Part shown: positions 10,691-44,687 of the stretch, one piece after another
Position numbering within the stretch: the first letter of the stretch is position 1
Layout: each line of letters opens with the position of its first letter
IMG/VR virus record: IMGVR_UViG_3300027976_000007
Span: 78,111-142,110 of that record
Length of the DNA: 64,000 nucleotides
Reading direction: 5' to 3' (one strand)
Source: a virus
The notes under the pieces: generated by a model
Database searches by the model: none
Told to the model about the DNA's origin: nothing
What the model saw: the letters and a program-made list of their open reading frames with translations, nothing else
Made by a program: the position numbers and the translations under genes

Positions 10691-12040
10691 TCAATTATAC
10701 ATATTAGAATTCCATTCAAATTTTAGATTTCCCGTATTCCATACTCGGTAATATCCTCTATTTAACATAATCTCATATTCTGTAAGTTTGGGGTCTTCTC
10801 CTTGTTTTACTAATAGATCTTTTCTGAAGTTAAATCTATTATATTTTATTTTTGATTTAAACCAATGATATCCTGGAGTAGTAGGTTTTAAGGGGTTCAT
10901 ATTCAATTTATTGTATAAACCCCCATCACTCCAATCTCTGTTGGCATAAGATATTACTTTTATAGGGGAATGGAGGGTTATAAATTTCTTAAATAGTTTA
11001 GATGCTCCCCCTATAACATTATAGTATTTTTTATTACAAAATCTTAACAATTCAAAATGACCTTCGATATTATTTTGTTTTAAATTTTTTCGTAATTTAC
11101 TAAAGGTCATTACTGAAACTAATCCATCATTATAGAATAACCCTAAACTGTATTTACATATAGCATTTCCCTGTAGATGGTTTTCTTTTAAGAAAGAAGT
11201 ACTTTCTTTATTTGAAATGTTTTTTACAACACATTTTCTAGCATAAATTGAATTTGGAGTAATACTCAATTGGTTTTTGAGTATTGATTTGATAATATCG
11301 CTTTTTTGGATCCAATCACTATCCCAAATATGTATTAATTTTACCCCTAAAGAGTTACATTCTTTTGTTTTTTTTAGATGGTATGATTTGTCTTTTTTAA
11401 AGAGATCGGAATGATAATAAGTTCCATTAAATTCTATAGCTAATTTTAATTCAGGTAGATATATATCTATTTCTTTCCCATTTAATAATTCTGTATCATT
11501 ATTAATTATTTTATCTTTATATTCGTTTTTAATGAAAGAAAGTAGTTCTTTTTCTAGTTTGGATACTCCCTTAAATAATCCTTTTTCTTTTTCTATTCTC
11601 TTTATAGCACTTTTTCTCATTTGGTTTTTTGTTTCTATTGAGTGGGTGTTATATCCAGGTTTTACCCAATCCCAATGACCTTTAATATAGGAAGAAAACC
11701 AGTTCTTTTTGTCATATTTAATAAAAGTAGTTTCACCTTTACATCCACATTTACATAATGGAGGTTTATTATTAAATTTATGCTTTAGTATATAATTTTT
11801 GAAGGATATGTTATGTTCTTTAGAAATATGGAACATTAAATTCCTATAATCTTTTACATTAACACCACATTCCATACATTCCATTTTATAGGTTTTAGAG
11901 TCTTTTATTTCTTTGATTTTTTTGATTCTAAATTCCCCGTACTTCGAAAGGTATTCCTCCGTCTTTATTGAATGGTTCCATCTCAGATGCATCGCTAAGG
12001 ACCTAGCGGTTATTTCTTCATTACATATATTACATTTCAT
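10691..12040 (-). mobile_element. Free-standing Hef-like homing endonuclease (zinc fingers, NUMOD3-like motif, Vsr/DUF559-like nuclease, GNAT-like C-terminal domain)
   Basis: CxxC...HxxxxH twice, CKCGC, HSIETKNQM, EIDIYLPELKLAIEFNGTYYH, IYARKC...HLQG...ELLRFC...GGASKL...SYANRDWS. Confidence 0.8.
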
Positions 12041-12138: not shown

Positions 12139-13767
12139 TTACAGTGTGTTCAATCCACTTACTAGGATCTTACCGTAAAATTCTGGTCTCACAACTTTCT
12201 TAGCGTATCTAGTCATCAAACCTTTACTTGGTACGTAAGTGTCTGGATCATATACAAGAGGTGTCATAATCAACGGAACATAAGGGGCGAAAACCGCTCC
12301 GGCTTCTAGGAATTGACCTCCTCTGAATCCCATAAGGATTACATTTTCAGTCATATAAGGGTTTTTATACACCGTATATCTTGAATTCATAGTTCCTGCT
12401 TTTTCAACTCCAAAAGCATATGTTTGTTTAGTAACATCACCGTCTGAATTAGAAGCAAATCCTGGGATAGACTCTAAAATAGTTCCTACTGCAGGAGAAC
12501 AAACTATGAAGTTAGCTCCTCCTCTTAAGGTTCTTTGGTGAATTATATTAGACAATTTTTGCATTTTAGTTCCAAGTGTTTGGAACCATTGTCCTTGGGA
12601 ATTAAAGAATCCTAAATCAGAATTTAATACACCAGCAGCACCTATTGAAAGGTTATTAACCGCTGACCAATATTCGGTACCAGCCGCTGCTGACTCAATC
12701 AACATATCAAGTATTTCTAAGTCTATATCTAAGGCGATATGTTCACTCATAATACTTGTTAATTCTGCTTCAGCATCCAAACTTTGGTAAGCATCAAGGT
12801 CTTGAGCGAACTCAGGAGTCCATTTAGCTTTAAGTTTTCTAGTTTTAGCAATTATACCTTCACTTCTCATTGAAATGTTAATTTCAGGGATAGAAATAGG
12901 ATCATTACTACCATTAAGGTTAGTATTTCCTTCTTCGTAATCTCCTCTATTAGCATCTGTAGGTTGTAGAGTATAAGTTATAGTAACGTTAGATCCTTCA
13001 ACAGGAGCTTGAGTTGAACTTACTACGAATCTCAAAGTAGAGCCTGAAGCCTTTGTAAAAGCGGACAATTGGATAGGTCCTGTTATAGATCCAGTACTCA
13101 ATTGGAAACTTCTGATTGCTTCAGCATCATAGTTAGGGATTGCAGAGGTAGGAATCATTACTACTTTCAAACCACCAGCAGAAACAGAAGCAGAATATGC
13201 TGAGTCAGCATTTATGTCTGTAAACCAGTTAGTAGATGAAGCCGTAGTAGCTGAAGAGATAGAAGCTGTGTTGTTAATTGAATAACCATATCTTCCAGCA
13301 CCATAAGATCCACCTGTTGTAGAGTTCCCGAAAGGACCAGTACCGTCAGCAGCTAAAGTCCCATATAAAGACTCACCAGCAGTGAAAGGGGTTTTTGAAG
13401 TTCCATATTGGAAATCAAGGAAGAATACTAAACCTGCAGGCAGGTTCATAGGTTGTACAGAGACAAACTCCTTAGTGGAGATTTGACCCATGATTTTTCT
13501 AACCATAGGAAGAGCTATTCCAGCCCATTGTGCTCCTGTACCAGTTGAGAAACTACCAGCACCAGCACCTCCACCAGTTGTAGAGTTTTCTACTACTAAT
13601 TGTTTTGACTGGTTCTCAAGGATCATAGACATATTGTTTCTTTCTGTTTCAGAATCAATACCTTCTAATAGTCCTGTAGTCTTCCATTTTTTGGCTAGTC
13701 TTGAAGCATCACTTTGTAGTGATTTATAAGGACTAGCACTTTCTAAAAGTGATTGTAATTTTGACAT
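12139..13767 (-). CDS. gp23: Major capsid protein (T4 gp23-like)
   Basis: VQPMNLPAGLVF, AKTRKLKAKWTPEFAQDL, DAEAEL, APYVPL, GLMTRYA. Confidence 0.98.
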   Translation of the reverse strand: MSKLQSLLESASPYKSLQSDASRLAKKWKTTGLLEGIDSETERNNMSMILENQSKQLVVENSTTGGGAGAGSFSTGTGAQWAGIALPMVRKIMGQISTKEFVSVQPMNLPAGLVFFLDFQYGTSKTPFTAGESLYGTLAADGTGPFGNSTTGGSYGAGRYGYSINNTASISSATTASSTNWFTDINADSAYSASVSAGGLKVVMIPTSAIPNYDAEAIRSFQLSTGSITGPIQLSAFTKASGSTLRFVVSSTQAPVEGSNVTITYTLQPTDANRGDYEEGNTNLNGSNDPISIPEINISMRSEGIIAKTRKLKAKWTPEFAQDLDAYQSLDAEAELTSIMSEHIALDIDLEILDMLIESAAAGTEYWSAVNNLSIGAAGVLNSDLGFFNSQGQWFQTLGTKMQKLSNIIHQRTLRGGANFIVCSPAVGTILESIPGFASNSDGDVTKQTYAFGVEKAGTMNSRYTVYKNPYMTENVILMGFRGGQFLEAGAVFAPYVPLIMTPLVYDPDTYVPSKGLMTRYAKKVVRPEFYGKILVSGLNTL

Positions 13768-14929: not shown

Positions 14930-15541
14930 TTAGTTTAAAGGACAAGATCCATTACCGCATAAAATATCTATGATTATAGAATTTATTACCCCATACTGGT
15001 TATAGTATTTAGATTCAGTAATGTTTTCTCTAAGAGGTTTCATAAAGGAGTTTGGATTGGATGGGGTGCTTACAAAATCCCAACATAACAATTCAAAATC
15101 ATCTTGAACCTCCATTATTCCACCTTCTTCTTTAAGAGATCCCATACCTCTAGAAGACACACCAACACGAATATTGTTTTCTATTAAAGCTTTTAAAATA
15201 TTACCTGATGGGGTAGGAAGGATTTCTATTTTCCCTATAATTTCATCCCCATCCCATCTATATTCTATAATATTATGTGATACGTTTTTTAAATTTACAG
15301 TTTGGGATTCTGGATGGTCTAGTTCTCCAGTTGCTCCATTACTTTTAATTAGTTCATCATACTTCTTCATTTCCCTAACCCAAAGCTCCCTGGAATAATA
15401 TCTACCGTTACCGTTTTTGATTTCCGCTGTGGCTAGTATCCCTTCAACTACAAGATTTCCCCTAGCTGATAGTTTACCCTCTGTAATGACAGGAGAGATT
15501 GTAGGTTTAAAGGTGGAAGTCTCTATTAATAGTTGTTTCAT
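14930..15541 (-). CDS. gp21: Prohead protease (gp21-like)
   Basis: NGNGRYY, GELDHP, TPSG, GVSSRGMGS, DFVSTPS. Confidence 0.97.
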   Translation of the reverse strand: MKQLLIETSTFKPTISPVITEGKLSARGNLVVEGILATAEIKNGNGRYYSRELWVREMKKYDELIKSNGATGELDHPESQTVNLKNVSHNIIEYRWDGDEIIGKIEILPTPSGNILKALIENNIRVGVSSRGMGSLKEEGGIMEVQDDFELLCWDFVSTPSNPNSFMKPLRENITESKYYNQYGVINSIIIDILCGNGSCPLN

Positions 15542-15544
15542 AAT

Positions 15545-17242
15545 TTATAGGGAATTTTTTCTTTTTAGAGGTCTTTTTCTTTCTTCAATATTATTATCTT
15601 CAATAGTATCACCACTAACTATTTCAGTTGGAGGAGAATAAGAACATCCTGCGGTTTTTTCGTACACTTTAACCATGGTGGCTTTTTTCTTTTCTAAAAG
15701 CTTTATTTCCTTCTCCATCTCCTTGATCTTTTTCTTGTCAACAAGTTCAGATAAACTTTCATCTTCAGAAACCATAGATAATCTTTTACTTTTTGAATCA
15801 ATAGCGTGTGATATAGCTTCTATTTGAAATTCTATAGTCGCAATCTTCCCTTGGTTTTCTATCTCCGATAATTTACTATCAAGGGTAGGTTTTTTCTCTT
15901 TTTTAGGTTTAGGGGATGGTTTTTCTCCTAAGGGGAGTTGTTCTTTTATAAGGTTTATCAGTTTTATGTGTTTCATATTTTTTTTACTTTCTGAGAATTG
16001 TCTTCCATCTTCAAATGATGCTACTGTGGATTCAGAATCATACCAATCCTCTACTCTATAATCAATATTACCTTTCCCGTCATCTATTCTATTTACATGC
16101 TGGGTAACTCTTTCTGATTTTGATATATCTCTTGCTTTGTTAATAGCTCTAGTTTTAAGGTCTTCACCCTCACCAGCATCGAACCCAAACCAAACATCAT
16201 CAGGGAATTCATTAAAATCATCTTGAGTATATTCTCTGCTATCAGCTTCAGGTGGGTTGAAATTATCATTATCATAAGGGGCTTTTAAAGGTTGTTTATT
16301 TGATACCCCTTCCTTCAATTTAACTTTAACCATTTGGTCTGTTTTTGAAGCTTTTAATCCAGGTAAGTCGTCTCTATATCCTAATCCTTTTACCCCAAAT
16401 TGACCATCCTTAACATAATGAAGTCTATCTTTAGTTAAGTTTTTAGCTACTATGTCTTTTATTTGTTCAACAGTTTTTTCGGAGTTCTTAGGATCTTTCA
16501 TTTCACAATAATAACCTGACAAGAATTCTTGTCCAAAGATATTATCAATGTTTTTTATATCTTTATAATCATATCCTTTAACCTCCATATCAATTACTTC
16601 TTTGGGGGTTTTCTTCTCTTCAGCTTTAGCTCCTTTTGCTTCTTTTGCTTCTTTTACAAAAGTTCTTCCACATTCTCTTAATCTTTTCAATTTATCGTCT
16701 ATTGAATTTAAAGCATCACCAAATCTGCCAGCGACTTCTCCTCCTTGAGGTTCAGCTTCTTGTTCCATATCTCTAGTAATTTGGGCTCTTTCATCCTCAA
16801 GTTCATATCTTTCTAAACCTTGTTGGGTTTTATCAACATGAAATCCTTTAGAATATTTAGGTTCACCATCTACTTGGTTTTTAAATCTGTCCCTTGATGT
16901 TCTAGCTCTCATTAAAGGGGAATCATTTACATCTTCTATTTCTTTTATTGAACTTTTAGATGTTGCGGCCGATATTTTACGATCCTCAAAATCTGAATAT
17001 TTCTTTTCCTTTTCATTTAATTTAGATTTAAATATAGAAAAGAAATCTGAATCTTCAGATTTAGTATTTTCATGGGAGTGAATTATATTATTTCTTTTTA
17101 AACTATTTATTGTTTCTTTTATATCCGCCGCATTACGGATAATAGAAGGGAATAGTTTCTTAGCAGTTTTTTTGAAAATTTCAACATTACCTTTTCCTTT
17201 AAGGATCAAATTATATTGTTCTTGTAAAGTTTTTTGTTTCAT
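15545..17242 (-). CDS. Modular head-associated / internal protein
   Basis: In the head operon. Charged segments punctuated by LQE/LNE/LRE/LKE/IKE, with an internal HIKLINLIKE. Confidence 0.6.
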   Translation of the reverse strand: MKQKTLQEQYNLILKGKGNVEIFKKTAKKLFPSIIRNAADIKETINSLKRNNIIHSHENTKSEDSDFFSIFKSKLNEKEKKYSDFEDRKISAATSKSSIKEIEDVNDSPLMRARTSRDRFKNQVDGEPKYSKGFHVDKTQQGLERYELEDERAQITRDMEQEAEPQGGEVAGRFGDALNSIDDKLKRLRECGRTFVKEAKEAKGAKAEEKKTPKEVIDMEVKGYDYKDIKNIDNIFGQEFLSGYYCEMKDPKNSEKTVEQIKDIVAKNLTKDRLHYVKDGQFGVKGLGYRDDLPGLKASKTDQMVKVKLKEGVSNKQPLKAPYDNDNFNPPEADSREYTQDDFNEFPDDVWFGFDAGEGEDLKTRAINKARDISKSERVTQHVNRIDDGKGNIDYRVEDWYDSESTVASFEDGRQFSESKKNMKHIKLINLIKEQLPLGEKPSPKPKKEKKPTLDSKLSEIENQGKIATIEFQIEAISHAIDSKSKRLSMVSEDESLSELVDKKKIKEMEKEIKLLEKKKATMVKVYEKTAGCSYSPPTEIVSGDTIEDNNIEERKRPLKRKNSL

Positions 17243-18137: not shown

Positions 18138-20042
18138 TTATTTAATATTAGATTCATCTAAAAGCGGAGACGTATCTTCGGGAGATTCAACTAACAAACG
18201 AGTTTTTTCTTGAGGGATTAACTCTAAAGTATCCTTGTAAGATAAATAATGGGATGTTTGTGATTCTAAAGCTAATGGAGATCCACCTTTGGGTTTATAT
18301 TTTAATGGTGATTTTTCATTATTATAATCATTTTTCATCCCTTTCGAACCTAATCTATCATTCCCAAAATTGTCGGCTTGAGTATTTCGTTTAGTTTCAC
18401 TATTCTTAGGTCTACCTAAAGTTTCAGATTTGTTTTCATCATATCCCGGAGGAACGGATCCCGGAACCATTCTTCCTGGACCATACAGACTAGCCAGATC
18501 ATGAGGAGTACCATAAGATTTTCCTGTTTCTAGGGGATCATTACCTTCAGATTCAATTTGAGCCAATCTAAATTTACGATGTGAGTCCTGCATAATCAAA
18601 TCTCTATATTCATCATATTGATCCTCACTCAAATGGAAAATATGTTCATAAATAAAGTCAGTAGGGAATAAGTTTTGTTCTATCATGCTAGCAGCTAACT
18701 CTACCTTAGATTTTAATAATTCTATTCTCTCTTGATCATATATTATTGATGGGGTAGTTAATGAAATTTCAAAGTTTCCTAAATTCTCATCTCTATATCC
18801 TTGCGTGTATAAATGAATAATAGCTATTTTATACAATTCAGAAATAGTTATTCTTTGGATCCTTTCTATTGTTCTAGCGAATCTAATATCTTGGGCTGCC
18901 AATGTAGCTTTACCATCAGTATTTTCATCATATCCCATGAAAGCTTTAGGTACTTTTAAAGCCGCGAATAATTTGTCTCTAAAATATTCTACGTCTACTA
19001 TCCCATCCCATTGCATCCCTTGAGCCGTATCTATTTTTGTTGATGAGTCATTTCCCCTTACGGGGATGTAATAATCTTCTAGTAGGTTTTGAAGATTGAA
19101 TCTTAAATTATAATCTCCAGTTTCTGGATTTATATGGGGAGTTCGTTTCATAGTAGAAACTGTTTTTTCCATAAAAGCATCTACCTCATTTGGAGGGATT
19201 GATCCTACATTTAAATAAAATATTCTTTTTTCTGGTGCTCTTACTATCCTATGGATTAACATAGCATCCTCCATTAGTGTATATTGTTTAAATAATTTTC
19301 TTGCAGGTTCTATATAAGAACGGCCATAAGGTAAATAATTAACATCCGCAAGTAGTCTAAAGTGAGCAATTTCGTAATTATCAAATAAATTGTCGGTTGA
19401 ACCATTATCCTTTGAAGGTTTATAGTTATAGGAAGTATTGGGGCCTTCGGGACTATATCTAAATTGAATTTTGGTAGGGTTTTCTCTATCTCTTCCTTCT
19501 AATCTCTCTATATTAAATGCGGTATAAGGTATTACATTATATACTCCAAATTTTTCAGCAATTTCTAATTTTAGGAAAAAGTCTCCATATTTACACATAT
19601 TTCTTATCCAAGGCCATAAATTGAATTCTATGTTTAAAACATCATAGAATAAATTATATAAGATTTTTTGAATATCTTCATCGGTAGATTTTATTTGTAG
19701 CACCTCCCCCATATCATTTTTTAAAGTAGATTCATCTGCTATAATATCTAAAGCAGAAGCTACTATTGCATCTGTATCCATAGAATCATAATCTGAATAT
19801 AGTTGTGTTCTTATATTCTGGTGGTTTTGGTGGAGTTGATTTCCATATATTGAAGTACCATTTCCTGATGTAAATACTTTGTTGAATCTATCGATTACAG
19901 TATTAGTAGCTACTTGGCCTGATTGTTGTATTTGGTTTATGTCAAATACTTTTAATTGATTTTCCCCATTATTTCTTATGATAACATCAGTAGAGAATAA
20001 TCTTCTAAGTCTTGAGAATAAATCTTTTTTTATAGGATCCAT
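18138..20042 (-). CDS. gp20: Portal protein (gp20-like)
   Basis: ALDIIADE, MEDAMLIHRIVRAPEKRIFY, EDYYIPVR, ALKVPK, DIRFARTIERIQ. Confidence 0.97.
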   Translation of the reverse strand: MDPIKKDLFSRLRRLFSTDVIIRNNGENQLKVFDINQIQQSGQVATNTVIDRFNKVFTSGNGTSIYGNQLHQNHQNIRTQLYSDYDSMDTDAIVASALDIIADESTLKNDMGEVLQIKSTDEDIQKILYNLFYDVLNIEFNLWPWIRNMCKYGDFFLKLEIAEKFGVYNVIPYTAFNIERLEGRDRENPTKIQFRYSPEGPNTSYNYKPSKDNGSTDNLFDNYEIAHFRLLADVNYLPYGRSYIEPARKLFKQYTLMEDAMLIHRIVRAPEKRIFYLNVGSIPPNEVDAFMEKTVSTMKRTPHINPETGDYNLRFNLQNLLEDYYIPVRGNDSSTKIDTAQGMQWDGIVDVEYFRDKLFAALKVPKAFMGYDENTDGKATLAAQDIRFARTIERIQRITISELYKIAIIHLYTQGYRDENLGNFEISLTTPSIIYDQERIELLKSKVELAASMIEQNLFPTDFIYEHIFHLSEDQYDEYRDLIMQDSHRKFRLAQIESEGNDPLETGKSYGTPHDLASLYGPGRMVPGSVPPGYDENKSETLGRPKNSETKRNTQADNFGNDRLGSKGMKNDYNNEKSPLKYKPKGGSPLALESQTSHYLSYKDTLELIPQEKTRLLVESPEDTSPLLDESNIK

Positions 20043-29656: not shown

Positions 29657-29956
29657 TTAAGATACATCCATCTCATCTTCATCGGCTTCAAACCCTTTAG
29701 ATCTTAAAGAATTTATAATTTCTTCAGAGTTGTATTTGTCCCCTACTCCCCCTTCAACCTCAATCCCTATCCTTTTTAGGAAAGCATTCGTTTCGTCTTT
29801 GTTTAAAGTTTTTCTTTCTCCGTTTTTTAGGTAAAAGTATGCTTTATAAAAACGTGACCCTGGATAAGTATAAGATATCAAGATTCTTTTGATTTTTATA
29901 GCATCCCTTAGAGATAATTCTTCCTTTATTAATTTTTTTAGTTCAAATTTTTTCAT
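29657..29956 (-). CDS. Small probable internal protein
   Basis: N-terminus MKKFELKKLIKEE. Confidence 0.65.
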   Translation of the reverse strand: MKKFELKKLIKEELSLRDAIKIKRILISYTYPGSRFYKAYFYLKNGERKTLNKDETNAFLKRIGIEVEGGVGDKYNSEEIINSLRSKGFEADEDEMDVS

Positions 29957-30513
29957 TTTTTTAATTTTTCTAAGTTTTCTATAGTTTTGTTAAGACTATC
30001 TAATATTTTTTCTTTATCTACCCCACCAATCCAATTTTCTAAATCTCCATTTTCGGAGATGAAGGAATTGGAAGTTTCATTTATTTGTTCTAAAACCCAA
30101 TTTTTATATCCTTTAATAAAACCTTCTAAATCAGCATTATGGATATTTTTTTCATATTGAACATATAGACCTGCCTTTTTTAAGTCATGTTCAAAATCAA
30201 TAACACAGTCAAAACACATTTTATGTACTTTATAATAATCAGGGTCGAACCTCTTTTTCATCAGGTTAGTACAGTTAGGGCAAAATAAAGGTGGAATATT
30301 TAAGGCCCTTGCCTTATCTAATTTAGTTATGTTTTGTTTTATTCCTTCTTTTATAGTCCATTTCCTTCCATCTTCTTCCCAAATGTCTCCTTCAGAATAG
30401 AATTCTTTTGGTTTACTGTATCCTGAACTTGATCCTGTTTTCTCTTCAGATTTACCTTGGATGAGATTTCTCATCCTTTGAACTTCCTTTTTATTAAATT
30501 CTTTTTTTAACAT
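29953..30513 (-). CDS. Zinc-finger hypothetical protein
   Basis: CPNC...CFDC and EGDIWEEDGRKW. Confidence 0.7.
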   Translation of the reverse strand: MLKKEFNKKEVQRMRNLIQGKSEEKTGSSSGYSKPKEFYSEGDIWEEDGRKWTIKEGIKQNITKLDKARALNIPPLFCPNCTNLMKKRFDPDYYKVHKMCFDCVIDFEHDLKKAGLYVQYEKNIHNADLEGFIKGYKNWVLEQINETSNSFISENGDLENWIGGVDKEKILDSLNKTIENLEKLKK

Positions 30514-32729
30514 TATAATCCTAATTCTTTTAATTCCTTAATAGTTTGGGTCGTTGATTTAAATAATATACCAATACCCCCGGCCTTATTCCAATTTATT
30601 ATGGTTTCCTCCCTATCATCGATTAATATATCATTGGAGGTTAATTTAGGTTTTATTAAATGTTTTTCCTTAGCAGGTTTCATATTCATTTTAGGTTTTG
30701 AAGGGAAAAGACCTTTGTTAACCCATATATCTAACCAAGCTTTTTTACCTTCTACTGATTGTTCTTTGATAGAAGGAGCAGTAAGAAGTTCATAATTATA
30801 TTTAGATACAAACTTAATTAATTTTTTAGCTTCAGGCAGGGGAGGAATTCCTTTCCAGAACACCATTTTATTAGGACCTTCATCTATAAAATCCCAAAAA
30901 GCTTTAACCCCAAATTCATCTCTATAATCCCCAGGACTTATACCTTGAGATAATTCAGTAAATCTTCCATCAAAATCTGCTATTACCCCATCCATATCAA
31001 CATATATCATAGGGTTATCCAATTTAAAAGATTCAAATAAAGGCAAAGATAAAGATTTAGATCTAGTTCTCCATTTGGAAAGTATTTTATCCTTTTGCAA
31101 AGAAGTGAGTTCTTGGTCTTCTAGATAAGCATCAATAACATCCTTCATTGGTTTTTTTGATTTTTTAGCTTGAGTATACATCCCATATAACATAGCATCT
31201 ATCTCTGTAGGTAAAGTGAAATATTTCCAATATGGATTTTTTCCTGTTTCTATTTTATCTCTAAGATCATTGTCTTTGTCTAAGTCAAAATCTTTGGATG
31301 GGGTTTTATTAAGACCATCCTGAGTAAGATGTTCTATTTCATGTCTAAGTATGTCAGAGACTGCATAGGATACTTTTTCCCATATTTGGGGGAAATCTTC
31401 TTTGGGGACTTTAAAAATAAGTTGGATTTTGGCAGGTTTTGAAGCAAATGATCCACCTTCATCATAAAATTCATATGATTTAGTATTTAGGGATGCTTCT
31501 AGATTGAATTTTAACCCTGATTCTTCAACTTTAAATTTTAGTTTAGAAAGTTGATTACCTTCTTCAACATCATACTTCCAACCTTTAATTACCTGGTTAG
31601 TAAGTTTGGTTACTAGACTATCATATTTACCTTCCTTTAAGTTTATTACTTCGTGGAAAAAAGATATTGCTTTTTCATTCAAACCAAATATGTCTTTTGA
31701 TTCCTTTACATCCCAATTCTTATTAACGGTTTCTAAATCTCCTTTTTCCGTTTGAGATAACAGTTCATCATAGGAAATAGATTCATTTAAACTATCAGTC
31801 CAATTTCTAAAATTCATATTTCCATTTAAATATGCTTCTTTTTCTAATTCCACTAAACCCTCATCTTCGTTAGTGTTGGTTGTTTGTATATTACCTAATC
31901 GGTTTTCTAAATCTTGCAAATAATGAATAATCTCATGGGAATAAGATCTAATTAAATCTTTAGGATGTCTTCCTTCAGTATATAAAACTATAGTTTGATT
32001 TGTAGGATCATAATAAGCAGTTTTTCCAAAGAAATCTTTTGCGTTTTTTACATCTCCATGTTTGAATATAACTTTAGGGAGGGTTTTGATTTCTGGATGT
32101 TTATTTAAGAACCATTTAGTGAGGGATTTTATTTGGGATTTATAGTCTATCTCTTTAGAGTAAGTAGCATCCTCGTTTAGTTCCTCTAGGGTTTTGTTAT
32201 CTAGAATATTAAATATTTCTTCCTTTTCATTCTCAGATAATTCGCTAGGTAAATATTTTGAAAATTCTTCAATACCTTGTTTTAATGCCTTTCTAGCATT
32301 TGATCCGCTCATACTTCCATCTGGGGTTGATATTATCTTGAGAACCATATTAGGGTATTTTGAATCTATATTTTTGGTTCTCTGTTTAATATCCAATTCG
32401 TCATCTTCCCTACCCTCTCTACTCCCTATAACAAAATATATTAGGCCTTGGGGGTTGTTTTTTGCTAGTCTTAATATTTCCCCTATAGGGGCATGGGCGG
32501 GGATAAGTTTTACTTTAGAAGGGAGATATTTTAAATATATTTCCCATATTTTTATAGATAATTCTTGAGATATACCACCCCTTTCTCCACCCCCAACATA
32601 AATTATAAACTCACCAACGTTTGGGAGTGCTTCTAATGCTTTTTTAACTACAGAAAGATGGCCTGCGGTTGGAGGTTTGAAGGACCCTCCAAAAACTGCT
32701 GTAGGGTTCTTTTGAGTTGGTGAAGTCAT
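30513..32729 (-). CDS. Four-domain protein: HxGH-class nucleotidyltransferase, two HExxH metallopeptidase-like domains and a HAD 5'-nucleotidase (NT5C-like)
   Basis: FGGSFKPPTAGH...MSGSNAR; SHEIIHYLQ..EKEAY; RHEIEHLTQ..EIDA; YVDMDGVIADF...LTAP...GK..W...LIDD. Confidence 0.85.
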   Translation of the reverse strand: MTSPTQKNPTAVFGGSFKPPTAGHLSVVKKALEALPNVGEFIIYVGGGERGGISQELSIKIWEIYLKYLPSKVKLIPAHAPIGEILRLAKNNPQGLIYFVIGSREGREDDELDIKQRTKNIDSKYPNMVLKIISTPDGSMSGSNARKALKQGIEEFSKYLPSELSENEKEEIFNILDNKTLEELNEDATYSKEIDYKSQIKSLTKWFLNKHPEIKTLPKVIFKHGDVKNAKDFFGKTAYYDPTNQTIVLYTEGRHPKDLIRSYSHEIIHYLQDLENRLGNIQTTNTNEDEGLVELEKEAYLNGNMNFRNWTDSLNESISYDELLSQTEKGDLETVNKNWDVKESKDIFGLNEKAISFFHEVINLKEGKYDSLVTKLTNQVIKGWKYDVEEGNQLSKLKFKVEESGLKFNLEASLNTKSYEFYDEGGSFASKPAKIQLIFKVPKEDFPQIWEKVSYAVSDILRHEIEHLTQDGLNKTPSKDFDLDKDNDLRDKIETGKNPYWKYFTLPTEIDAMLYGMYTQAKKSKKPMKDVIDAYLEDQELTSLQKDKILSKWRTRSKSLSLPLFESFKLDNPMIYVDMDGVIADFDGRFTELSQGISPGDYRDEFGVKAFWDFIDEGPNKMVFWKGIPPLPEAKKLIKFVSKYNYELLTAPSIKEQSVEGKKAWLDIWVNKGLFPSKPKMNMKPAKEKHLIKPKLTSNDILIDDREETIINWNKAGGIGILFKSTTQTIKELKELGL

Positions 32730-33523
32730 TTTAAAAATTGGTTTATTTTAGATTGGGCTTCTTCTTTTGATACGGAAGAAGCAATTATATTTTGAGTTTT
32801 GTCTGATTGAAGAAATGATTGGAGATCTTTATTCAGTTTTTCTTTATTCTTTTCGTCTCTTAACTTTTCTTTATCTGTTTTATCCCTCCCATCTCGGGGA
32901 ATGAAGGGGTATATATAATTTTTTAAAATATCTTCTACAGACTTCATAGTTTCTTTTTTTCCTAAATTGGAAACAGACACAAAATTGGAGAATGATTTTT
33001 TATATATAGGAAAGTTTTCTGAAACTTTTAACCATGTTTGGAGGATTGAGGAGGGAACTAAACTCCTATCTTTTCCTTTACTTTTTTCAAATCGATTTTG
33101 GTTTCTCTTTAGGGATGTTTCTAGGTCTGTATAGACATATAACATCATAACATCATATCCGGATTCTTGAAGTTTATTTTTTAATTCTAATGTTGGTTCT
33201 GATGATGAAGAGGTTCCGTCTAATATGAAAGACTCCTTGTTTGCTATTATTTTAGGCAATTGTTCTTGTTTGAGTTTTTTTGAAGCATTTTGCATGGCTT
33301 TCATAAATTTACTCCTATCTTTAGCACTGGTATCTTTTTGATTGAGTGAAAAATTTTCTATTTTGGATAAAGCTAAAATATTATCATCAACATTTAGTAT
33401 AGTTAATCCTTTTAAATCCAAATCTTGTAAAATAGAACCTTTTCCTGAACCTGGAGCCCCCGCAAGAATGAGGGCTTTAGGATTGGAAAGGGATTCTTTT
33501 AAAAGCTGAATTAACGATATCAT
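32726..33523 (-). CDS. Zeta-toxin / AAA_33-like P-loop kinase
   Basis: LAGAPGSGKG, NVDD, FILDGT, GYDVMMLYVYT....SLKRNQNR. N-terminal MISLIQLLKES. Confidence 0.8.
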   Translation of the reverse strand: MISLIQLLKESLSNPKALILAGAPGSGKGSILQDLDLKGLTILNVDDNILALSKIENFSLNQKDTSAKDRSKFMKAMQNASKKLKQEQLPKIIANKESFILDGTSSSSEPTLELKNKLQESGYDVMMLYVYTDLETSLKRNQNRFEKSKGKDRSLVPSSILQTWLKVSENFPIYKKSFSNFVSVSNLGKKETMKSVEDILKNYIYPFIPRDGRDKTDKEKLRDEKNKEKLNKDLQSFLQSDKTQNIIASSVSKEEAQSKINQFLK

Positions 33524-33575
33524 TGTTTATGGTTTTTGTTATAAATATATTAAACAAATTGAGGATATATTAAAT

Positions 33576-35333: not shown

Positions 35334-35774
35334 TTATAGAATAATATCCCTGTAAAAGAATCTTCCTTGGATAGAATCATTATAATATTGTTCAGGATAT
35401 TCTATAACTGAATTCGAAAATAAGGCTTTGTTTTCAAAATATGTTAATTGTTTTTTAGTATAATGGACTGAAATGATGGTCTTTATTATATCATCCCCCT
35501 TTTCTATGTCTTTGAGAAGACCTTTATGAGAACCACAATAAGTTTTCCAATCAGATTCTTTTCTGTTTTGTTTGAATTTTATAGGGCGGCCTTTAGAACC
35601 TTGAAGTTCTTTAAGTTCTTTTTTCCCTAATTTCATTTTTCGGTTAAAAAATAGCACTTTCTTTCCTATATAAATCTTACCATTAGATAGGTTTTTTATT
35701 TTATAAATAAACCCATAAACCTCTTCAGGGAAGTCCTCTATTGATTTAAAATTAACACCTTCAAATACCCACAT
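35334..35774 (-). CDS. GIY-YIG endonuclease, T4 EndoII (DenA)-like
   Basis: YGFIYKI.N...KIYIGKK...ESDWKTYCGS...YYND.I. Confidence 0.85.
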   Translation of the reverse strand: MWVFEGVNFKSIEDFPEEVYGFIYKIKNLSNGKIYIGKKVLFFNRKMKLGKKELKELQGSKGRPIKFKQNRKESDWKTYCGSHKGLLKDIEKGDDIIKTIISVHYTKKQLTYFENKALFSNSVIEYPEQYYNDSIQGRFFYRDIIL

Positions 35775-38483: not shown

Positions 38484-41400
38484 TCAACCAAATGAATTTT
38501 TCTCTTTTAATATATCAATTAAACCTTGTATATTATTCTTTTGTGTTATAGAGAAATCATTTGGTATTATAAATCCTCCCCCTGTTATATTATTATTACC
38601 TAATACTCCTTGGGGGGGTGTTTGGTATATTATTATTCTATTATCTTTTTCTTCTCTTCTTCTGATAATAATGTTATCTATTTCCCCATTTGCTATGTTT
38701 AAGGTTGAAGGATCAGGAGATACATTTATTTTATTGAATAAGGAAGAAGAATGTATAGTGTTTGTAGGGTTGGTAGGGCTGGAACCTGAATATTGGTATA
38801 GAGATCCTACCCCATCTTCACTTGATACTGAAGTTACTATGAATTCTTGAGTTATATGAGGCTGTTTAGCGCTCCCCCCCATTGGGAGATAAGTAATTTG
38901 TATTTCATCATTCTGTTTTATGATAAAAGGTAAAAGTTGGGTAGAATATCCAGCAATACTAGAAGAAGAAAAATTAAAGGTATGATAATTTTTATAATCC
39001 CCTTTTGAAGTTGAGAGAGATAATGAACTGTTTATAGGAAAACCTAATATATACCCTTCACCTAAAGAATAAGTTGTAGGTTGGTTTAACTCTAATACTG
39101 TATTAATAGAATTGATTAGACCTAATCCTGGACCATAAAAACTACATACTTCTCCTGTGGTGATATTTAATGATTGAGATACTTTTATATTACTTCCCCC
39201 TAATATAAAGCTATTGCTTGAGGTTATTAATAAGGGACCGTAAACTGTATTACCTATGGTATAACTTAATTCAAATCTATAAGTTTCTTGGAAGGATGAA
39301 GTCGTAAAGGACATTGCAGGGCTTGAATTAGGGAAATTATTAGGGGAAGGACCATATAGTCCTGTAGTAGTAGCCCCAATAATGTTATACTGTATTCCCC
39401 CTTGGAAAATTTTAGATTTTTTCTCTTTTAAAGTACTATAATTAATACTACTTGATATGTTAGAATCATATAAAATTAAAGAATCTCTATTTTTCTCAAA
39501 CGCGCTGCTTACTATTTGCAAGAAATCTGAATTCCCTTTTGTTTTTAATGTAGGTGTGTTTATTTTAAAATTTGTAACGTTTATATCTTCTTGTGGTGAT
39601 TCTATTAGGGTATCGATTTCAAAAATATAAGTTCCTTCTAGAGCTAAATTTGAATATGAACTTTTAAAGTGAGCAAAATATCTAGGGTAGGAATTTATAA
39701 CAGATTCATTTCCATAAGAAACATCTCCATCCCAACTTCCACTATCACCATTTATAAAGGAGATTGATGAAGATCGGGGGGTATAATAATTATAATTTAC
39801 ACTTTTAAGCTTAGACCCTAAATATCGAGGTTGGGTGAAGGACTTCTGATGATAGTTACTATCTGGAGTCTCTACTCTAGAGGCTTTATTTTGTTTTATG
39901 AGATTTAGGTTAGAAGGAAGATGCATACCCGATTGATATTCTATAGATTGGATATGTTTACTTTTTCTTATCCCTTCATCATTATTAAGGAGGGCGTTGA
40001 AGTCTGAATTTGAAAATATAAAGTCTGAAGGAAGAATAGGAGAGAAGTTATAAAGCACGTTGGATGTTGTGGTTAAAGAGAAATCTGAAGATCCACTGTT
40101 TATTCTTCCATCAATATTATATTGGAAATATGTATTAGTATCGTCTGTGCTTTCTCCTTGGGATTCTATTAAATTATATTCATTATTTATGATAGATCCA
40201 GATAAGTTATATACCCCTTGAGATTGAGGGGTTCCATTATAATCTAAAGTTATTTGAAAGGTAGGGTTATTTGCTAAAGTATTAATATTATTAATAGTAT
40301 CTCCCCCATTAAGACTTAACCTATTGAATATGAAAGAGGTAGGGATCCATTTAGCTATATCACTCCCTGAATTAAAGTATGTTAGGGGGTACATATTTAC
40401 ACTCGCCGTCCCTATATTATATATATTTTTAATATGGAAATCTCTTTGGGTTTTAAATGATCCTAAATATAAAGTTTTGGAGGCAAAACCACCTGAAGGA
40501 GTAACCAAACTAAAACTTGATCTGAAAAGTCTTCTATCTTTTTGATATTTGAATATTCTGTATTGTTTCGTATTTTGAACCCATAATTTATCATCTGTTG
40601 GGATGCCTAATAAGGAAGATGCTATTTTACCTGAAGAGGGGGTTCCCGGGAGGTAGGGGTCTACATTTCCTGTTTCTAAATCAAAATAAAAATAAGGTGC
40701 TCTTACATTTTGGGGGTATTTCTTTTCATTAGGGTATAAATAATCCCCCCATCCGGGAATTGTAGGGTTATCTCTTCCATCTAGAGTTTCAGGTTTGTTT
40801 TTTGTCCAAAGAGCTATTGAAGCTAAAGAATAAGTAGGGGCGGTGCGTGCTAAATATAAAGATAGTATTACAGCATCTGTTTCTGGTGGGGGATTATTTG
40901 TCATTAATTCTTCTATCTCTAAAGCTGACGTATAATCACTACTCACGTAATAATGGATATCTACTGAATATGAAGGGTAATTTATACTTGAAGTTATTAG
41001 AGTATGATAGAATATAGGTTCACCTTTAAAGGAAGAATATGGGTTATTAAAGAGAGATTGGGTTGTTATAGGAAGTTCAGTTCCTTCATATTCTCCATTA
41101 TAAAATTCTTTTTGTGTATCTTCAATTTTTTCTATTATTCCTATAGGCGTATGTTGGGATGAAGTATAAGATTGATTAAATGAAGGATTATTATAAGGAT
41201 TTAATACCCCCCCAGGGCCTTCAGTAAAGGAATAAATTTCTGTAGGAGGGATTGAGGCTGTTATTTCAATATTTTTAAATGATATAGATTCATTCATCGA
41301 TGAAGACGAATTAGTTGCCACCTTAGTATTTATAGTAAATTGGGTGGGGTGGACTCTATTTCTTTCTAATAAATGTTGTTTAATTATTATACCAGTATTA

Positions 41401-44400
41401 ACTTTAGTTCTGGCGGGGGTATAGGCTTTTATTGAAGAAAATAAGGAATTATCATAATATTTGATAAGACGTATATAGTCCTGTAAATTACCTTTTGAGT
41501 ATTTTTTAAAGTATTCCTTGGCTATTACTCTAAGTTGAGGGTAAAATACTGAACCTGTAGTCATGAATCTAGGATCTCCTAAAGTATCTGATATAAAGTT
41601 ATATCCAAGAGATTGGATAATATCATCATTCACTTCATCTTGAGGGGAGAATCCTACCTCTAACATCGTTGTATCTTCTACATAACTCCTACTTACTTGA
41701 TAATCTTGTTGTATAGAAGTTTCTCTAGATAATAGATTTCCATAATATGGATTATTCTTTATTTGGATTTTATTTGAAATCTTATTATTAACCCCAGAAG
41801 AAGGTTGGTTCATAAAATAAACCTCAACATTAGAAGTACTTAAATCCCCACTAGAAGTTAATTCTGAAGTTAATGAATACCCTGATGTTACTACTCCATC
41901 ATATATGAAAGAGCCTGTAATTAAAGAAGGAACTTCATTATATGTAGAAGGATGTGATGAAGAATAGTATGTAGTACTAACCCCTGAAGGTAAAGTGAAT
42001 TTAGTTTCAAGTTCGTTTCCTAAAGGGGCTCTAAAAGCCAACATATCAAAAGAACTTTCTGGACCTGTAACAGAATTACCTTCTATAGATTCAGGGTTCA
42101 TTACAAAACTATTAAAAGAATTTCCGTTCAGAGGTTTTGTGTAATATCTAAGTTCTTGGAAAGATCCTGTGAATTGTACCCCTGAGACATTTAATATTTT
42201 AGTAGTACCTTTTATTTGAGTACCATCTTTCCCTCCACCTAACAATAAACCTACACCAGCACCAGAAGATGTAGATTCAAACATGGTATTATATAATTGA
42301 GCCCCCGCATCAGAACTACCTGTAATTATGAAACTAGCAGAAGCTTGGAATCCTAAAGAATTTCCATCAGAACCATTATATTGTTTATTTTTAGCATATA
42401 AAGTATAAGTAATATCATTAGCACTACCTTTAGTAGTAGCTCCTTCTCGTTTCAATAATACACTCCACCATCCCTTATCGAAGAAGGGTAAATAAATATC
42501 ATCACTTTCTATAAAATTCCCACTATTATCCCCTAATACAAAATTTAAAGTTCCATATTCACCGTAAGGGTTTGAACCTGTACCTTGATAGTTCCCTAAA
42601 GATTGAGTTGCATAATTTAAAGTTATACCAAAACCACATCCATCAGAAGTTGAAGAATTTAAGTTAGATATTAAAGATTGAGTGAAATGAGATTCATCAG
42701 GAATTCCTAAAGTTTGAAATCTAAAAGCTATAGATGAAGGTACATTTCTTTCCCCTTTAAGGAATGAACTATAAGTTTCTTCCCATGGGGTTATTAAAGT
42801 ATAATATGAAGCATTAGAATTAGTTTTAAAAGCATAACTAAATCTGTTATACCAATCATCATAATCATTGTCATTATCTTTATTCTTACCTCCGAATTCA
42901 TTTATTCTAAGAATAGTATTAGGTATTCCCCAAACGTTTATAAGCTGTCTTAACCCCGAAATTGTACCTTTTTTCTTTATTAAATATGAAAGGTTATGAT
43001 AAAGACGTTTTAAAATTTCTTTATTTATTTTATCTAAAGCGTAAGGAAATGATTGGATTATATTAGGGGTACTTCCACTTACATTTACGGCTATATAATC
43101 ATTTATAAATTCACTCCCCGTGGAGGGGGCATAATATCCATCATTTTCCCCTATTAACCCTATGAAATTATCTGTATTTTTTGATGTGACTGAAGTAAAT
43201 CCTAAACTGTCTATAGCATCTTTTATTAACCCTAAAGGAAGACCTTGGTCTAGATTGTTAGTTGTATTATATCTTTCACTTAAAGCTTTAGTATACATCC
43301 AAACTTCATCAAAATGTTGACCTACCATATTAGAAAATTCTATATATTGGTTATTGTCATCATTGTCTCTTATAAATTCTGGTATTGTATAATATAACCA
43401 GTTTTGGTTTTTATTATCATAAAGAGATGCTGATAAAATATATCCTCCATAATATTGATGGTTTTCTATATCATTTCCCATCCAGGTTAACACTTGGGTA
43501 CTTCCTGTATTTAAAAGAGTATAGGGGTAATTAGACCCAGTTTTAGGATATGAAAATGAAGAACTGTTATAATATTGATAGTATTCAAAATCATCAAAGT
43601 TCTTTATAGTATTTTCTATCCTAGAATAAAAAGAATTTATTGTAGGAGAAGAGGAAGTTGTTGAGGTTAATAGGCTAATTTGATCCTCCCAACCTTGTAT
43701 ATTTGATACTTTTTTATAAAAATTATTTATTCTTGATTTAGCAGAAGAAAAGTTAACAAACTCATTGAAAGTACCATATGAATAATTAGGGGTGATTTTA
43801 ACCCCCTCATCTTTTAATATTTTTAAGAGGTTGAATTTTGAAGCTGAAGAATTGGTTTCCATCAAATCATTTTCTGATTTCAATTCAGTTGATGGGTTCT
43901 GTTTAGCTTTGAAATCAAGGTTTGTGTTTGGGCCTTGTAAATATGTTATATTTTTTCGTTGTGAGGGGTCTGTAGATAGAAATGTAACTTCATAAGCTTT
44001 ACTCTCACCTACTTTTATAACTACATTAAGTTCATCTTTAACATTATAGTTTGAGGGAAGGGGTTGGTATAATTTAACTATAACTTTCCCATCATCTTCA
44101 TTTCCTACATAATCTATATTAATACCTATAGAATAATTATTATCCCCTAAATTAAGATAAAACTCATCAAAATAAGGACTTAAACCTTTTAAAACTTGGG
44201 AACCAGATTGAATATTTTCTAATTCTTCCTTCAGGGTTTTTACTAAAGGAATTATATTCTTTGAATTTATATAATTACTCTTTAAAGATACCTCTGTTCT
44301 ATCCGAAGATATTTCGTTTATATAATATTTTTTGTCTTGAGATGATCCTAATTTATATTTAATGAAATTATAAACCCCATAAAGTTTACCTCTATCGAAT

Positions 44401-44687
44401 CCCAATCTAGATAAATCATAGTCAGGAGATACTATTATAGAATTGGTATTGGTTTTTCCCTTTATGCTAGTATTAGAACCATCAACCGACCAACCTGTAT
44501 ATGAATAGTCTGAGTGTAGGGTTTCTTTGTTAGAATCATAAACATGAAATTCCATAGTATCTTCCCCTGGATCATAAGACCCTTCCAATTCATAGTTCGG
44601 AATTAGGGTTTGATCAATATTATTAAAACCCCCTTTAGATAAAAGATAGGGATTAATAGTATTTATTGAAGAAGAAATATTATTCAT
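38484..44687 (-). CDS. Large baseplate wedge protein (gp7-like region with KKGT..GL plus a LamG-like domain)
   Basis: FSNMVGQHFD, YLIKKKGTISGLRQLINVWGIP, FTGSFQELRYY, IKAYTPART. Lies near gp6. Confidence 0.7.
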   Translation of the reverse strand: MNNISSSINTINPYLLSKGGFNNIDQTLIPNYELEGSYDPGEDTMEFHVYDSNKETLHSDYSYTGWSVDGSNTSIKGKTNTNSIIVSPDYDLSRLGFDRGKLYGVYNFIKYKLGSSQDKKYYINEISSDRTEVSLKSNYINSKNIIPLVKTLKEELENIQSGSQVLKGLSPYFDEFYLNLGDNNYSIGINIDYVGNEDDGKVIVKLYQPLPSNYNVKDELNVVIKVGESKAYEVTFLSTDPSQRKNITYLQGPNTNLDFKAKQNPSTELKSENDLMETNSSASKFNLLKILKDEGVKITPNYSYGTFNEFVNFSSAKSRINNFYKKVSNIQGWEDQISLLTSTTSSSPTINSFYSRIENTIKNFDDFEYYQYYNSSSFSYPKTGSNYPYTLLNTGSTQVLTWMGNDIENHQYYGGYILSASLYDNKNQNWLYYTIPEFIRDNDDNNQYIEFSNMVGQHFDEVWMYTKALSERYNTTNNLDQGLPLGLIKDAIDSLGFTSVTSKNTDNFIGLIGENDGYYAPSTGSEFINDYIAVNVSGSTPNIIQSFPYALDKINKEILKRLYHNLSYLIKKKGTISGLRQLINVWGIPNTILRINEFGGKNKDNDNDYDDWYNRFSYAFKTNSNASYYTLITPWEETYSSFLKGERNVPSSIAFRFQTLGIPDESHFTQSLISNLNSSTSDGCGFGITLNYATQSLGNYQGTGSNPYGEYGTLNFVLGDNSGNFIESDDIYLPFFDKGWWSVLLKREGATTKGSANDITYTLYAKNKQYNGSDGNSLGFQASASFIITGSSDAGAQLYNTMFESTSSGAGVGLLLGGGKDGTQIKGTTKILNVSGVQFTGSFQELRYYTKPLNGNSFNSFVMNPESIEGNSVTGPESSFDMLAFRAPLGNELETKFTLPSGVSTTYYSSSHPSTYNEVPSLITGSFIYDGVVTSGYSLTSELTSSGDLSTSNVEVYFMNQPSSGVNNKISNKIQIKNNPYYGNLLSRETSIQQDYQVSRSYVEDTTMLEVGFSPQDEVNDDIIQSLGYNFISDTLGDPRFMTTGSVFYPQLRVIAKEYFKKYSKGNLQDYIRLIKYYDNSLFSSIKAYTPARTKVNTGIIIKQHLLERNRVHPTQFTINTKVATNSSSSMNESISFKNIEITASIPPTEIYSFTEGPGGVLNPYNNPSFNQSYTSSQHTPIGIIEKIEDTQKEFYNGEYEGTELPITTQSLFNNPYSSFKGEPIFYHTLITSSINYPSYSVDIHYYVSSDYTSALEIEELMTNNPPPETDAVILSLYLARTAPTYSLASIALWTKNKPETLDGRDNPTIPGWGDYLYPNEKKYPQNVRAPYFYFDLETGNVDPYLPGTPSSGKIASSLLGIPTDDKLWVQNTKQYRIFKYQKDRRLFRSSFSLVTPSGGFASKTLYLGSFKTQRDFHIKNIYNIGTASVNMYPLTYFNSGSDIAKWIPTSFIFNRLSLNGGDTINNINTLANNPTFQITLDYNGTPQSQGVYNLSGSIINNEYNLIESQGESTDDTNTYFQYNIDGRINSGSSDFSLTTTSNVLYNFSPILPSDFIFSNSDFNALLNNDEGIRKSKHIQSIEYQSGMHLPSNLNLIKQNKASRVETPDSNYHQKSFTQPRYLGSKLKSVNYNYYTPRSSSISFINGDSGSWDGDVSYGNESVINSYPRYFAHFKSSYSNLALEGTYIFEIDTLIESPQEDINVTNFKINTPTLKTKGNSDFLQIVSSAFEKNRDSLILYDSNISSSINYSTLKEKKSKIFQGGIQYNIIGATTTGLYGPSPNNFPNSSPAMSFTTSSFQETYRFELSYTIGNTVYGPLLITSSNSFILGGSNIKVSQSLNITTGEVCSFYGPGLGLINSINTVLELNQPTTYSLGEGYILGFPINSSLSLSTSKGDYKNYHTFNFSSSSIAGYSTQLLPFIIKQNDEIQITYLPMGGSAKQPHITQEFIVTSVSSEDGVGSLYQYSGSSPTNPTNTIHSSSLFNKINVSPDPSTLNIANGEIDNIIIRRREEKDNRIIIYQTPPQGVLGNNNITGGGFIIPNDFSITQKNNIQGLIDILKEKNSFG

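Follow-up and report, generated by a model that had tools for sequence, protein, structure and literature searches.

A modular 738-residue protein of a marine T4-like phage with candidate prohead-protease sites at its domain junctions

The stretch of DNA analysed here (the window) comprises 64,000 nucleotides, positions 78,111 to 142,110 of the IMG/VR virus record IMGVR_UViG_3300027976_000007, which has 142,110 bases in all. On its minus strand, at 30513-32729, it carries an open reading frame (ORF) of 738 codons, P0001. The encoded protein is composed of four modules, and a hydrophobic-x-Glu tripeptide is conserved at the junctions. We propose, with somewhat better than even confidence, that it is a precursor of four modules joined by disordered linkers and cut at the junction Glu by the gp21-type S77 prohead protease. 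Cutting by this protease is well supported by comparison with relatives, though not proven. A first-pass annotation of the window had placed the gene at the same position and left its strand unstated; the 738-codon frame is indeed there, and a plus-strand reading of the interval is ruled out by many stops.

Conserved sites at the module junctions

From its N-terminus, the protein consists of module N (aa 1-186, 32172-32729), module A (aa 187-316, 31782-32171), a spacer (aa 317-366, 31632-31781), module B (aa 367-566, 31032-31631) and module C (aa 567-738, 30513-31031), all encoded on the minus strand. The AlphaFold model of the protein has a predicted local distance difference test score (pLDDT) below 50 at aa 178-194, 280-367 and 557-568. 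A second model, restricted to aa 187-566, gave a pLDDT of about 80-95 for both middle modules and values below 50 across aa 306-366. The domain limits in the first-pass annotation, for which structure prediction had been suggested as the check, agree with these models.

The same annotation had listed a set of linker strings, and all of them are present: LEELNE at 181-186, SLNES at 313-317, GLNE at 349-352, NLKE at 363-366 and PLFES at 563-567. Bare [LI]xE tripeptides number 17 in the precursor, against about 11.4 expected from composition, and across the family the ratio of observed to expected is 1.07. Enrichment of [LI]xE as such was therefore rejected, being significant neither in the precursor nor in the family; the positions alone are informative. 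The idea that every [LI]xE marks a site proved wrong, as 13 of the 17 lie off the junctions.

Conservation was scored as retention of hydrophobic-x-E in 35 homologues of the same architecture. Three of the junction sites, all on the minus strand, are kept in 35 of 35: LNE184-186 (32172-32180), which follows LEE181-183 and has a pLDDT below 50, LNE314-316 (31782-31790) and LFE564-566 (31032-31040). At the fourth, LKE364-366 (31632-31640, minus strand), the Glu is found in 35 of 35 and a hydrophobic P3 in 31 of 35. The interior site 61, located in a module N helix, is retained in 28 of the 35 homologues, and the other 12 sites in at most 18 of 35 (ten of these in at most 4). GLNE350 is not conserved, and relatives read GLNQ at this position. 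It had been suggested that LxE sites inside folded domains and without conservation in homologues would speak against processing. The four conserved sites all fall at domain junctions, within linkers of pLDDT below 50, and are kept in 31-35 of the 35 homologues. They also coincide with the break points of BLAST alignments to longer relatives and with the points of module gain, loss or exchange in homologues.

Conservation rests on P3 (L, I, V or M) and P1 (Glu), with P2 variable and P1' variable except where it is the first residue of the next module. The flanks of modules carry [LI]xE in about 97% of cases for module A and for the start of module B, compared with 7.3% of interior windows.

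The strongest evidence for a function of the motif is that it depends on a junction. In 52 proteins, nothing follows module B, and the usual C-terminus is ...LSLPKF, one residue before the position of the Glu in fused forms. Where the end of module B is internal, 114 of 120 proteins have L, V, I or M at P3, and 115 of 120 have Glu at P1. The chain stops immediately behind P2 in 34 proteins; these always have K, E, S, N, T or Q at P3, never a hydrophobic residue, and no Glu (Fisher 2e-28). Kinship may inflate this figure, so a tree was built from 233 B modules without their junction residues. In this tree, the terminal state switches at least 16 times. For eight well-supported independent pairs, the motif follows the junction about 6.5 times versus 0.1 (median sign-test p 0.03). 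Terminal copies of module A behave likewise, with the Glu missing in 10 of 12 relatives.

All four B-terminal genes that were looked up are followed by a separate gene for the NT5C-type enzyme that forms module C in the window. In two of these four, the split protein begins MKYxIYSDMDGV. The fused forms read ...LFE-NKEQV-MKYEIYSDMDGV, and the former initiator Met is retained in them. Where the fused form has Leu/Val and Glu, the split form thus has Lys (at P3) and its stop codon, which indicates that the site accompanies fusion.

Folds and shuffling of the modules

Hallmarks of the HxGH nucleotidyltransferases are the (H/T)xGH and ISxTxxR-type ATP-binding motifs and a Rossmann-like fold. In module N, the corresponding ATP-binding motifs TAGH (21-24) and SGSNAR (141-146) are invariant in relatives. 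Its model matches PPAT and NaMN adenylyltransferase with Foldseek E values of 2.4e-6 to 1e-5 and template modelling (TM) scores by target of 0.75-0.79. The Pfam family CTP_transf_like reached 20.0 bits against a cut-off of 21 and covered only aa 12-43, the strand with TxGH. Against the NCBIfam equivalogs, all scores of the module were far under the cut-offs. On the predicted structure, we assign module N to the HxGH-class nucleotidyltransferases of the PPAT/NMNAT fold.

Module A is a minimal domain with the motif HEIIH at 265-269, and E296 and E298 are invariant in relatives. The 31 best structural matches to its model (about aa 192-305) are all HExxH proteins of the zincin fold, and every Z score is below 8. 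They include PprI/IrrE (Z 7.6), SPRTN (7.5), jannalysin (6.3), Wss1 (6.2) and the metallopeptidase domain of ArdC (6.0). The Z scores are middling, but the list of matches is uniform and consistent with the HExxH motif, and we model module A as a zincin fold. It fits the hallmarks of gluzincin-type metallopeptidases, in which HExxH is carried by an active-site helix that lies behind a beta-sheet and a third ligand follows further along the chain.

Module B is a second HExxH module (HEIEH at 463-467). E509 and D511 are invariant, and the model shows a beta-sheet followed by helices. In other viruses, module B is found as a stand-alone protein of about 208-245 residues. A feature-based comparison gave a weak lead to LPD23 (0.87), and the rows of the fold search were filled by matches to module A. 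Foldseek with the model of A and B together returned nothing at E<=0.001, only weak zincin rows. Rows for Pol-lambda and ANT in that search were disregarded, with root-mean-square deviations of 14-18 Å and probabilities of about 0.06-0.14. We also considered A and B as mutual duplicates. This was not shown: hhalign gave a probability of 16%, and the match was confined to the HExxH helix.

Module C is a 5'(3')-deoxyribonucleotidase of the HAD superfamily, of the NT5C type, with the motifs DMDGV (578-582) and DD (704-705). It matches Pfam NT5C (PF06941) at 31.8 bits, with a cut-off of 24.8, over aa 572-727, and a PHROG family annotated as 5'-3' deoxyribonucleotidase (E 1e-21). D578, D580, K689, D704 and D705 are invariant, and the fold of the model matches 3bwv and 1z4i. 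A PDB search by sequence gave nothing useful, and Pfam MPTase-PolyVal did not match the 738-residue protein.

The first-pass annotation had spoken of four free enzymes. For A, a zincin fold with middling Z scores, and for B, the claim was overstated. From the domain types, roles in nucleotide or NAD-type metabolism or in counter-defence are likely.

The spacer between A and B holds the remnant of a zinc-ribbon mini-module, degenerate and with its cysteines lost, together with a peptide of the form KDPFGLNxYARELAxGLEE. The non-conserved LNE350-352 (31674-31682) lies here. The peptide recurs between modules in relatives (P0022, P0084 and P0118), in some cases twice within the same chain, and a 40-residue zinc ribbon of the form CxxC...CxxC is likewise recurrent. 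Such mini-modules could possibly be spacers, docking elements or cargo.

The family is large. An exhaustive, profile-free search with aa 187-566 (E<=0.001) found at least 2194 cluster representatives at 50% identity, and a word-indexed search gave 2890 matches among 8000 scored candidates. Hidden Markov models of the modules recovered the orders N-A-B-C, N-A-B-B-C, N-B-A-B-C, N-x-A-x-B and dozens more. More than 40 architectures occur among 147 representatives, and chains reach eight or more modules. Inserted segments include ART-PolyVal, Tox-ART-HYD1, GNAT, Maf, a pol-beta palm domain, a RegB-like domain, M78 and M91 peptidases and several domains of unknown function. The repertoire is typical of injected effectors and polyvalent proteins (PMC5512222). 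When long relatives are cut in silico after each L[NE]E, the pieces are whole modules, inserted ones included. The 40-residue zinc ribbon, the KDPFGLNxYARELAxGLEE peptide (20-35 residues) and a 15-residue N-terminal leader are also among these pieces. The comparison of homologues that had been suggested as a check thus found what was anticipated, namely shuffled domains with retained hydrophobic-x-E linkers. No paper describing the polyprotein family was found in a literature search.

Candidate protease, leaders and competing explanations

T4 gp21 preferentially cleaves on the C-terminal side of Glu within I/LxE (PMC12991175; PMC5694885). The P3/P1 pattern of the junctions follows this rule and is atypical of zincins. 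A gp21-type prohead serine protease is encoded in the window at 14930-15541 on the minus strand (Peptidase_S77, E 3e-27, with the motifs ELDHP and GVSSRG) and is the candidate processing enzyme. It lies in a head module with genes for a portal protein (Portal_T4, 18138-20042) and a major capsid protein of the Gp23 family (12139-13767, minus strand). By sequence homology to gp20, gp21 and gp23, this head module is T4-type. An S77 protease was found in the window, in Flavobacterium phage immuto and in each of the four near-complete IMG/VR genomes with the family that were examined; in a fifth IMG/VR record with the family, which is 68% complete, none was found.

Other proteins of the head module carry similar sites. 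The propeptide of the capsid protein (aa 1-60) has four hydrophobic-x-Glu sites that are aligned between the window and phage immuto (L004, 10897-12507): LLE9/LFE8, LLE35, ILE51 and VVE59/VSE. Several cuts in the propeptide, as in T4 gp23, would explain them. The scaffold candidate and the S77 protease both begin with hydrophobic-x-Glu sites.

In T4, the capsid targeting sequence (CTS) MKTYQEFIAE is removed by gp21 once the cargo has been loaded (PMC8442874, PMC3012670). We looked for comparable leaders in 225 relatives whose N-terminus is complete and whose first module is N. In 132 of them, an N-terminal extension of 9-32 residues contains hydrophobic-x-Glu, for example MSLVHELIKE or MNQLTKFLVDGILNE, and these leaders resemble the T4 CTS. 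Only two relatives have an extension without the motif, and 132 of 134 extensions end in hydrophobic-x-E. A CTS-like leader is also present on the separate NT5C protein of phage immuto (gp087) and on two of four split NT5C genes in metagenomic loci. Directly 5' of the polyprotein gene in every case, and overlapping it, is a kinase gene. In the window, this encodes a P-loop kinase of the zeta-toxin/AAA_33-like type (32726-33523, minus strand; 4-base overlap with the start of the polyprotein ORF). Its N-terminus is a CTS-like leader, MISLIQLLKE (then S), which is shared by two (L002 and L006) of three related kinases that were compared. The upstream kinase may itself be capsid cargo.

A promoter-like 10-mer, ATATTTATAA, stands at 33539-33548 (minus strand) ahead of the unit formed by the kinase and polyprotein genes. 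It occurs 14 times in the window, where 2.85 copies are expected. All copies are on the minus strand, which is the gene strand, and lie 12-35 nt before a start codon; the other 13 are at 1820, 2389, 4149, 9938, 18115, 22601, 23832, 29635, 38459, 48792, 52197, 54905 and 59726. The genes behind them are mostly structural and include the tail tube, the sheath, the head-tail adaptor and a head gene, besides the kinase that heads the kinase-polyprotein unit. In a related locus, the kinase is preceded by TATTTATA. The T4 late promoter TATAAATA was rejected as the signal, since its matches are on the opposite strand and the gene-strand motif ATATTTATAA differs from it. We consider ATATTTATAA a candidate late promoter.

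In the mechanism we propose, the precursor would probably be made late, during prohead formation, since its promoter-like motif is common with structural genes. The gp21-type S77 protease would cut after E186, E316, E366 and E566, releasing products of 186, 130, 200 and 172 residues and the 50-residue spacer. In most relatives, the precursor would be taken to the prohead core by its CTS-like leader, so that a single targeting signal could load a whole set of exchangeable enzymes, which would then pass with the DNA to the next host. The leaderless copy in the window would be brought in by a partner, for instance the leader-bearing upstream kinase, or be cut outside the capsid; T4 gp21 acts on a cytoplasmic substrate loop (PMC12991175). 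More generally, and more tentatively, marine T4-like phages might carry cargo cassettes, each with one cleavable leader and exchangeable modules that end in the protease triplet, so that effectors in fixed ratio are cut apart in the head and injected with the DNA. We hold this wider proposal at somewhat under even confidence.

The linkers might instead be cut by the embedded HExxH module or modules, in cis or in trans, with no role for the prohead protease. Autoproteolysis by such metallopeptidase domains, and delivery with the DNA, were predicted for polyvalent proteins by Iyer, Burroughs, Anand, de Souza and Aravind in 2017 (PMC5512222). A and B form a near-universal core of the family with the HExxH and the downstream Glu invariant, module A matches the site-specific zincin proteases PprI/IrrE, SPRTN, Wss1, ArdC and CapP (Z 5.6-7.6), and leaderless members could be processed in this way without entry into the prohead. 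The universality of A and B is, however, partly circular, because the homologue set was gathered through these two modules. A fixed hydrophobic P3 and P1 Glu with a variable P1' corresponds to the gp21 rule; zincins usually depend on P1'. The hydrophobic-x-E leader is moreover found on the kinase, which has no zincin, and on the classic gp21 substrates (capsid protein, scaffold and protease). Self-processing seems quite unlikely to us. A short recombination signal in the DNA, serving module shuffling and without a role in the protein, would account for shuffling that clearly takes place at the junction points, and one 9-mer, TTAAATGAA, is the commonest coding sequence of the motif. Its codons TTA, AAT and GAA are simply preferred in a genome of about 31% G+C, though, and nine bases are too few for homologous recombination. 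The number of distinct 9-mers that encode each of the four junction sites is 15, 8, 29 and 8; they include synonymous and conservative substitutions, and P2 is free, which argues that selection acts on the peptide. On this codon diversity, we rejected a signal at the DNA level; its probability is very small.

It is also conceivable that the protein stays whole as a multifunctional enzyme, a fusion of linked activities (such as NMN or nucleotide salvage with the kinase) in which the motif has some other role in the linkers. The gene sits among genes for replication and nucleotide metabolism (primase, exonuclease and kinase), the window copy has no leader, and NT5C is separate in phage immuto and other loci, sometimes leaderless, as when pathway enzymes undergo ordinary fusion and fission. 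What an uncut enzyme would leave unexplained is the same tripeptide rule at every junction of unrelated folds, inserted modules included, and the loss of both the Glu and the hydrophobic P3 when nothing follows. Nor does it explain why almost all N-terminal extensions finish with this motif, or why effector-type domains without a mutual metabolic link are interchangeable. We regard an uncut enzyme as doubtful.

Several observations weigh against cutting and packaging as proposed. The precursor in the window has no CTS-like leader: it starts MTSPTQKNPTAVF (MTSPTQKNP), with a 9-residue extension that lacks hydrophobic-x-E ahead of the Rossmann strand, and is one of the two exceptions noted above. 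A further 82 relatives have no extension at all. Packaging of the window copy is uncertain for this reason. Two of the four split NT5C genes from metagenomes are likewise leaderless, and the NT5C enzyme thus need not be packaged. The polyprotein gene adjoins the primase and exonuclease genes and lies outside the head module. The motifs before A (LNE, then NASY) and B (LNE, then GRYD) are usually kept even when the module is first, and taken alone they could therefore belong to the module itself. The independent-pairs test draws on few pairs (p about 0.03), and the shared motif is the single ground for the label of late promoter. A literature search found no virion proteomics for phage immuto, the only cultured carrier. 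The first-pass annotation had envisaged a virion-packaged polyprotein cut by the prohead protease. The junction sites and the S77 protease favour the cutting; the packaging is plausible for the family from its leaders, and weaker for the leaderless copy in the window.

Known systems and the genomic setting

The family resembles the internal proteins and Alt of T4 in its T4-type head module, in its hydrophobic-x-Glu sites and in a leader, some 10-17 residues long, that ends in such a site in 60% of relatives. Like Alt, it would represent diverse and fast-changing enzyme cargo, with ADP-ribosyltransferases in some relatives. Unlike the proteins described here, the T4 cargo consists of single proteins cut once beside the leader, although Alt undergoes a further cut at its C-terminal end (PMC5694885). 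The present chains join up to eight or more modules, with a site at each joint, and the window copy differs further in being leaderless.

Polyvalent proteins (PMC5512222) likewise combine unrelated effector-type domains in one chain and are extensively shuffled; they contain a zincin-type peptidase and are predicted to be delivered with the DNA. Such proteins are recognized by 2-15 unrelated conflict-type domains in one chain and by shuffling, and the protein described here has four modules and belongs to a shuffled family. ART-PolyVal, GNAT and pol-beta nucleotidyltransferase domains occur in some of its relatives. The report on polyvalent proteins names no linker motif and no role for a prohead protease, and it states that genuine polyvalent proteins do not include the ADP-ribosyltransferases of T4-like phages (PMC5512222). 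The core modules of the present family (the HxGH nucleotidyltransferase, A, B and NT5C) were not found in its text.

In the giant phages phiKZ, 201phi2-1 and SPN3US, a gp21-related protease cuts many internal head proteins after Glu in a three-residue motif, some of them at multiple positions, and the products are ejected (PMC5694885). The motif there is A/S/G-x-E, unlike at the junctions here, and cleavage mostly removes propeptides. Strings of independent, exchangeable enzymes with intervening sites are not described for these phages. The polyproteins of eukaryotic RNA viruses and retroviruses are similar in that one product is divided at short linker motifs by a viral protease. The present virus is a tailed phage with double-stranded DNA and gene-by-gene expression, the modules would be accessory cargo and not a replicative or structural core, and the two are evolutionarily unrelated.

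If the precursor is cut as proposed, a tailed phage would be using a true polyprotein strategy. This would join the CTS system of T4 to the polyvalent proteins, with the prohead protease in place of the embedded metallopeptidase as the processor, and would settle the processing enzyme for at least one large class of polyvalent-type proteins. One leader plus a site at each joint would be a simple and testable rule for loading several enzymes into a capsid. Thousands of unannotated modules in marine viromes would then be probable injected effectors, with limits that could be read from the hydrophobic-x-Glu punctuation. T4 capsids have already been engineered to carry foreign proteins by means of the CTS, and a natural format for multiple cargo would extend this. 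A cultured carrier exists in Flavobacterium phage immuto, in which NT5C is separate.

Phage immuto is the sole phage record in the searched collection that matches modules A and B by protein, and no near-identical phage DNA was found. In immuto and four metagenomic loci, NT5C has a gene of its own. The neighbours of the polyprotein ORF encode a DnaG-type primase, an exonuclease and the zeta-toxin-like kinase, and the gene order around it is the same in immuto and in metagenomic loci. Fusion of the polyprotein to the upstream kinase or to downstream ORFs was not found among 268 related proteins.

Some further genes of the window were recorded. A conserved protein of 186-194 residues (MLKKEF...RNL..GK...GDIWEE.GR.WTIK), without a family match, is encoded at 29953-30513 on the minus strand. 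It lies 3' of the polyprotein gene or of the split NT5C gene in four of five related metagenomic loci (L002 13471-14031, L006 3904-4479, L007 5058-5633 and L008 5915-6499) and is not in L005. Just upstream of the primase gene is a gene for a SegE-type GIY-YIG homing endonuclease (35334-35774, minus strand; Pfam E 2e-26), which is at the equivalent place in two related contigs (L002 and L005).

Within the head module, a 565-residue ORF without a family match lies between the protease and portal genes (15545-17242, minus strand). It starts MKQKTLQE (then Q), a CTS-like leader, and has LNE at aa 75; these features mark it as a candidate for an internal protein of the head or core. A 449-residue ORF just downstream of the capsid gene (10691-12040, minus strand) has zinc-finger-like cysteines at its N-terminus and weak matches, below the cut-off, to restriction-endonuclease-like domains (MTES_1575 and PvuRts1I-like N). 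Possibly this is a mobile nuclease that has entered the head module. A 2067-residue ORF is present at 38484-44687 on the minus strand, and a counterpart of 2078 residues occupies the same relative position in L002.

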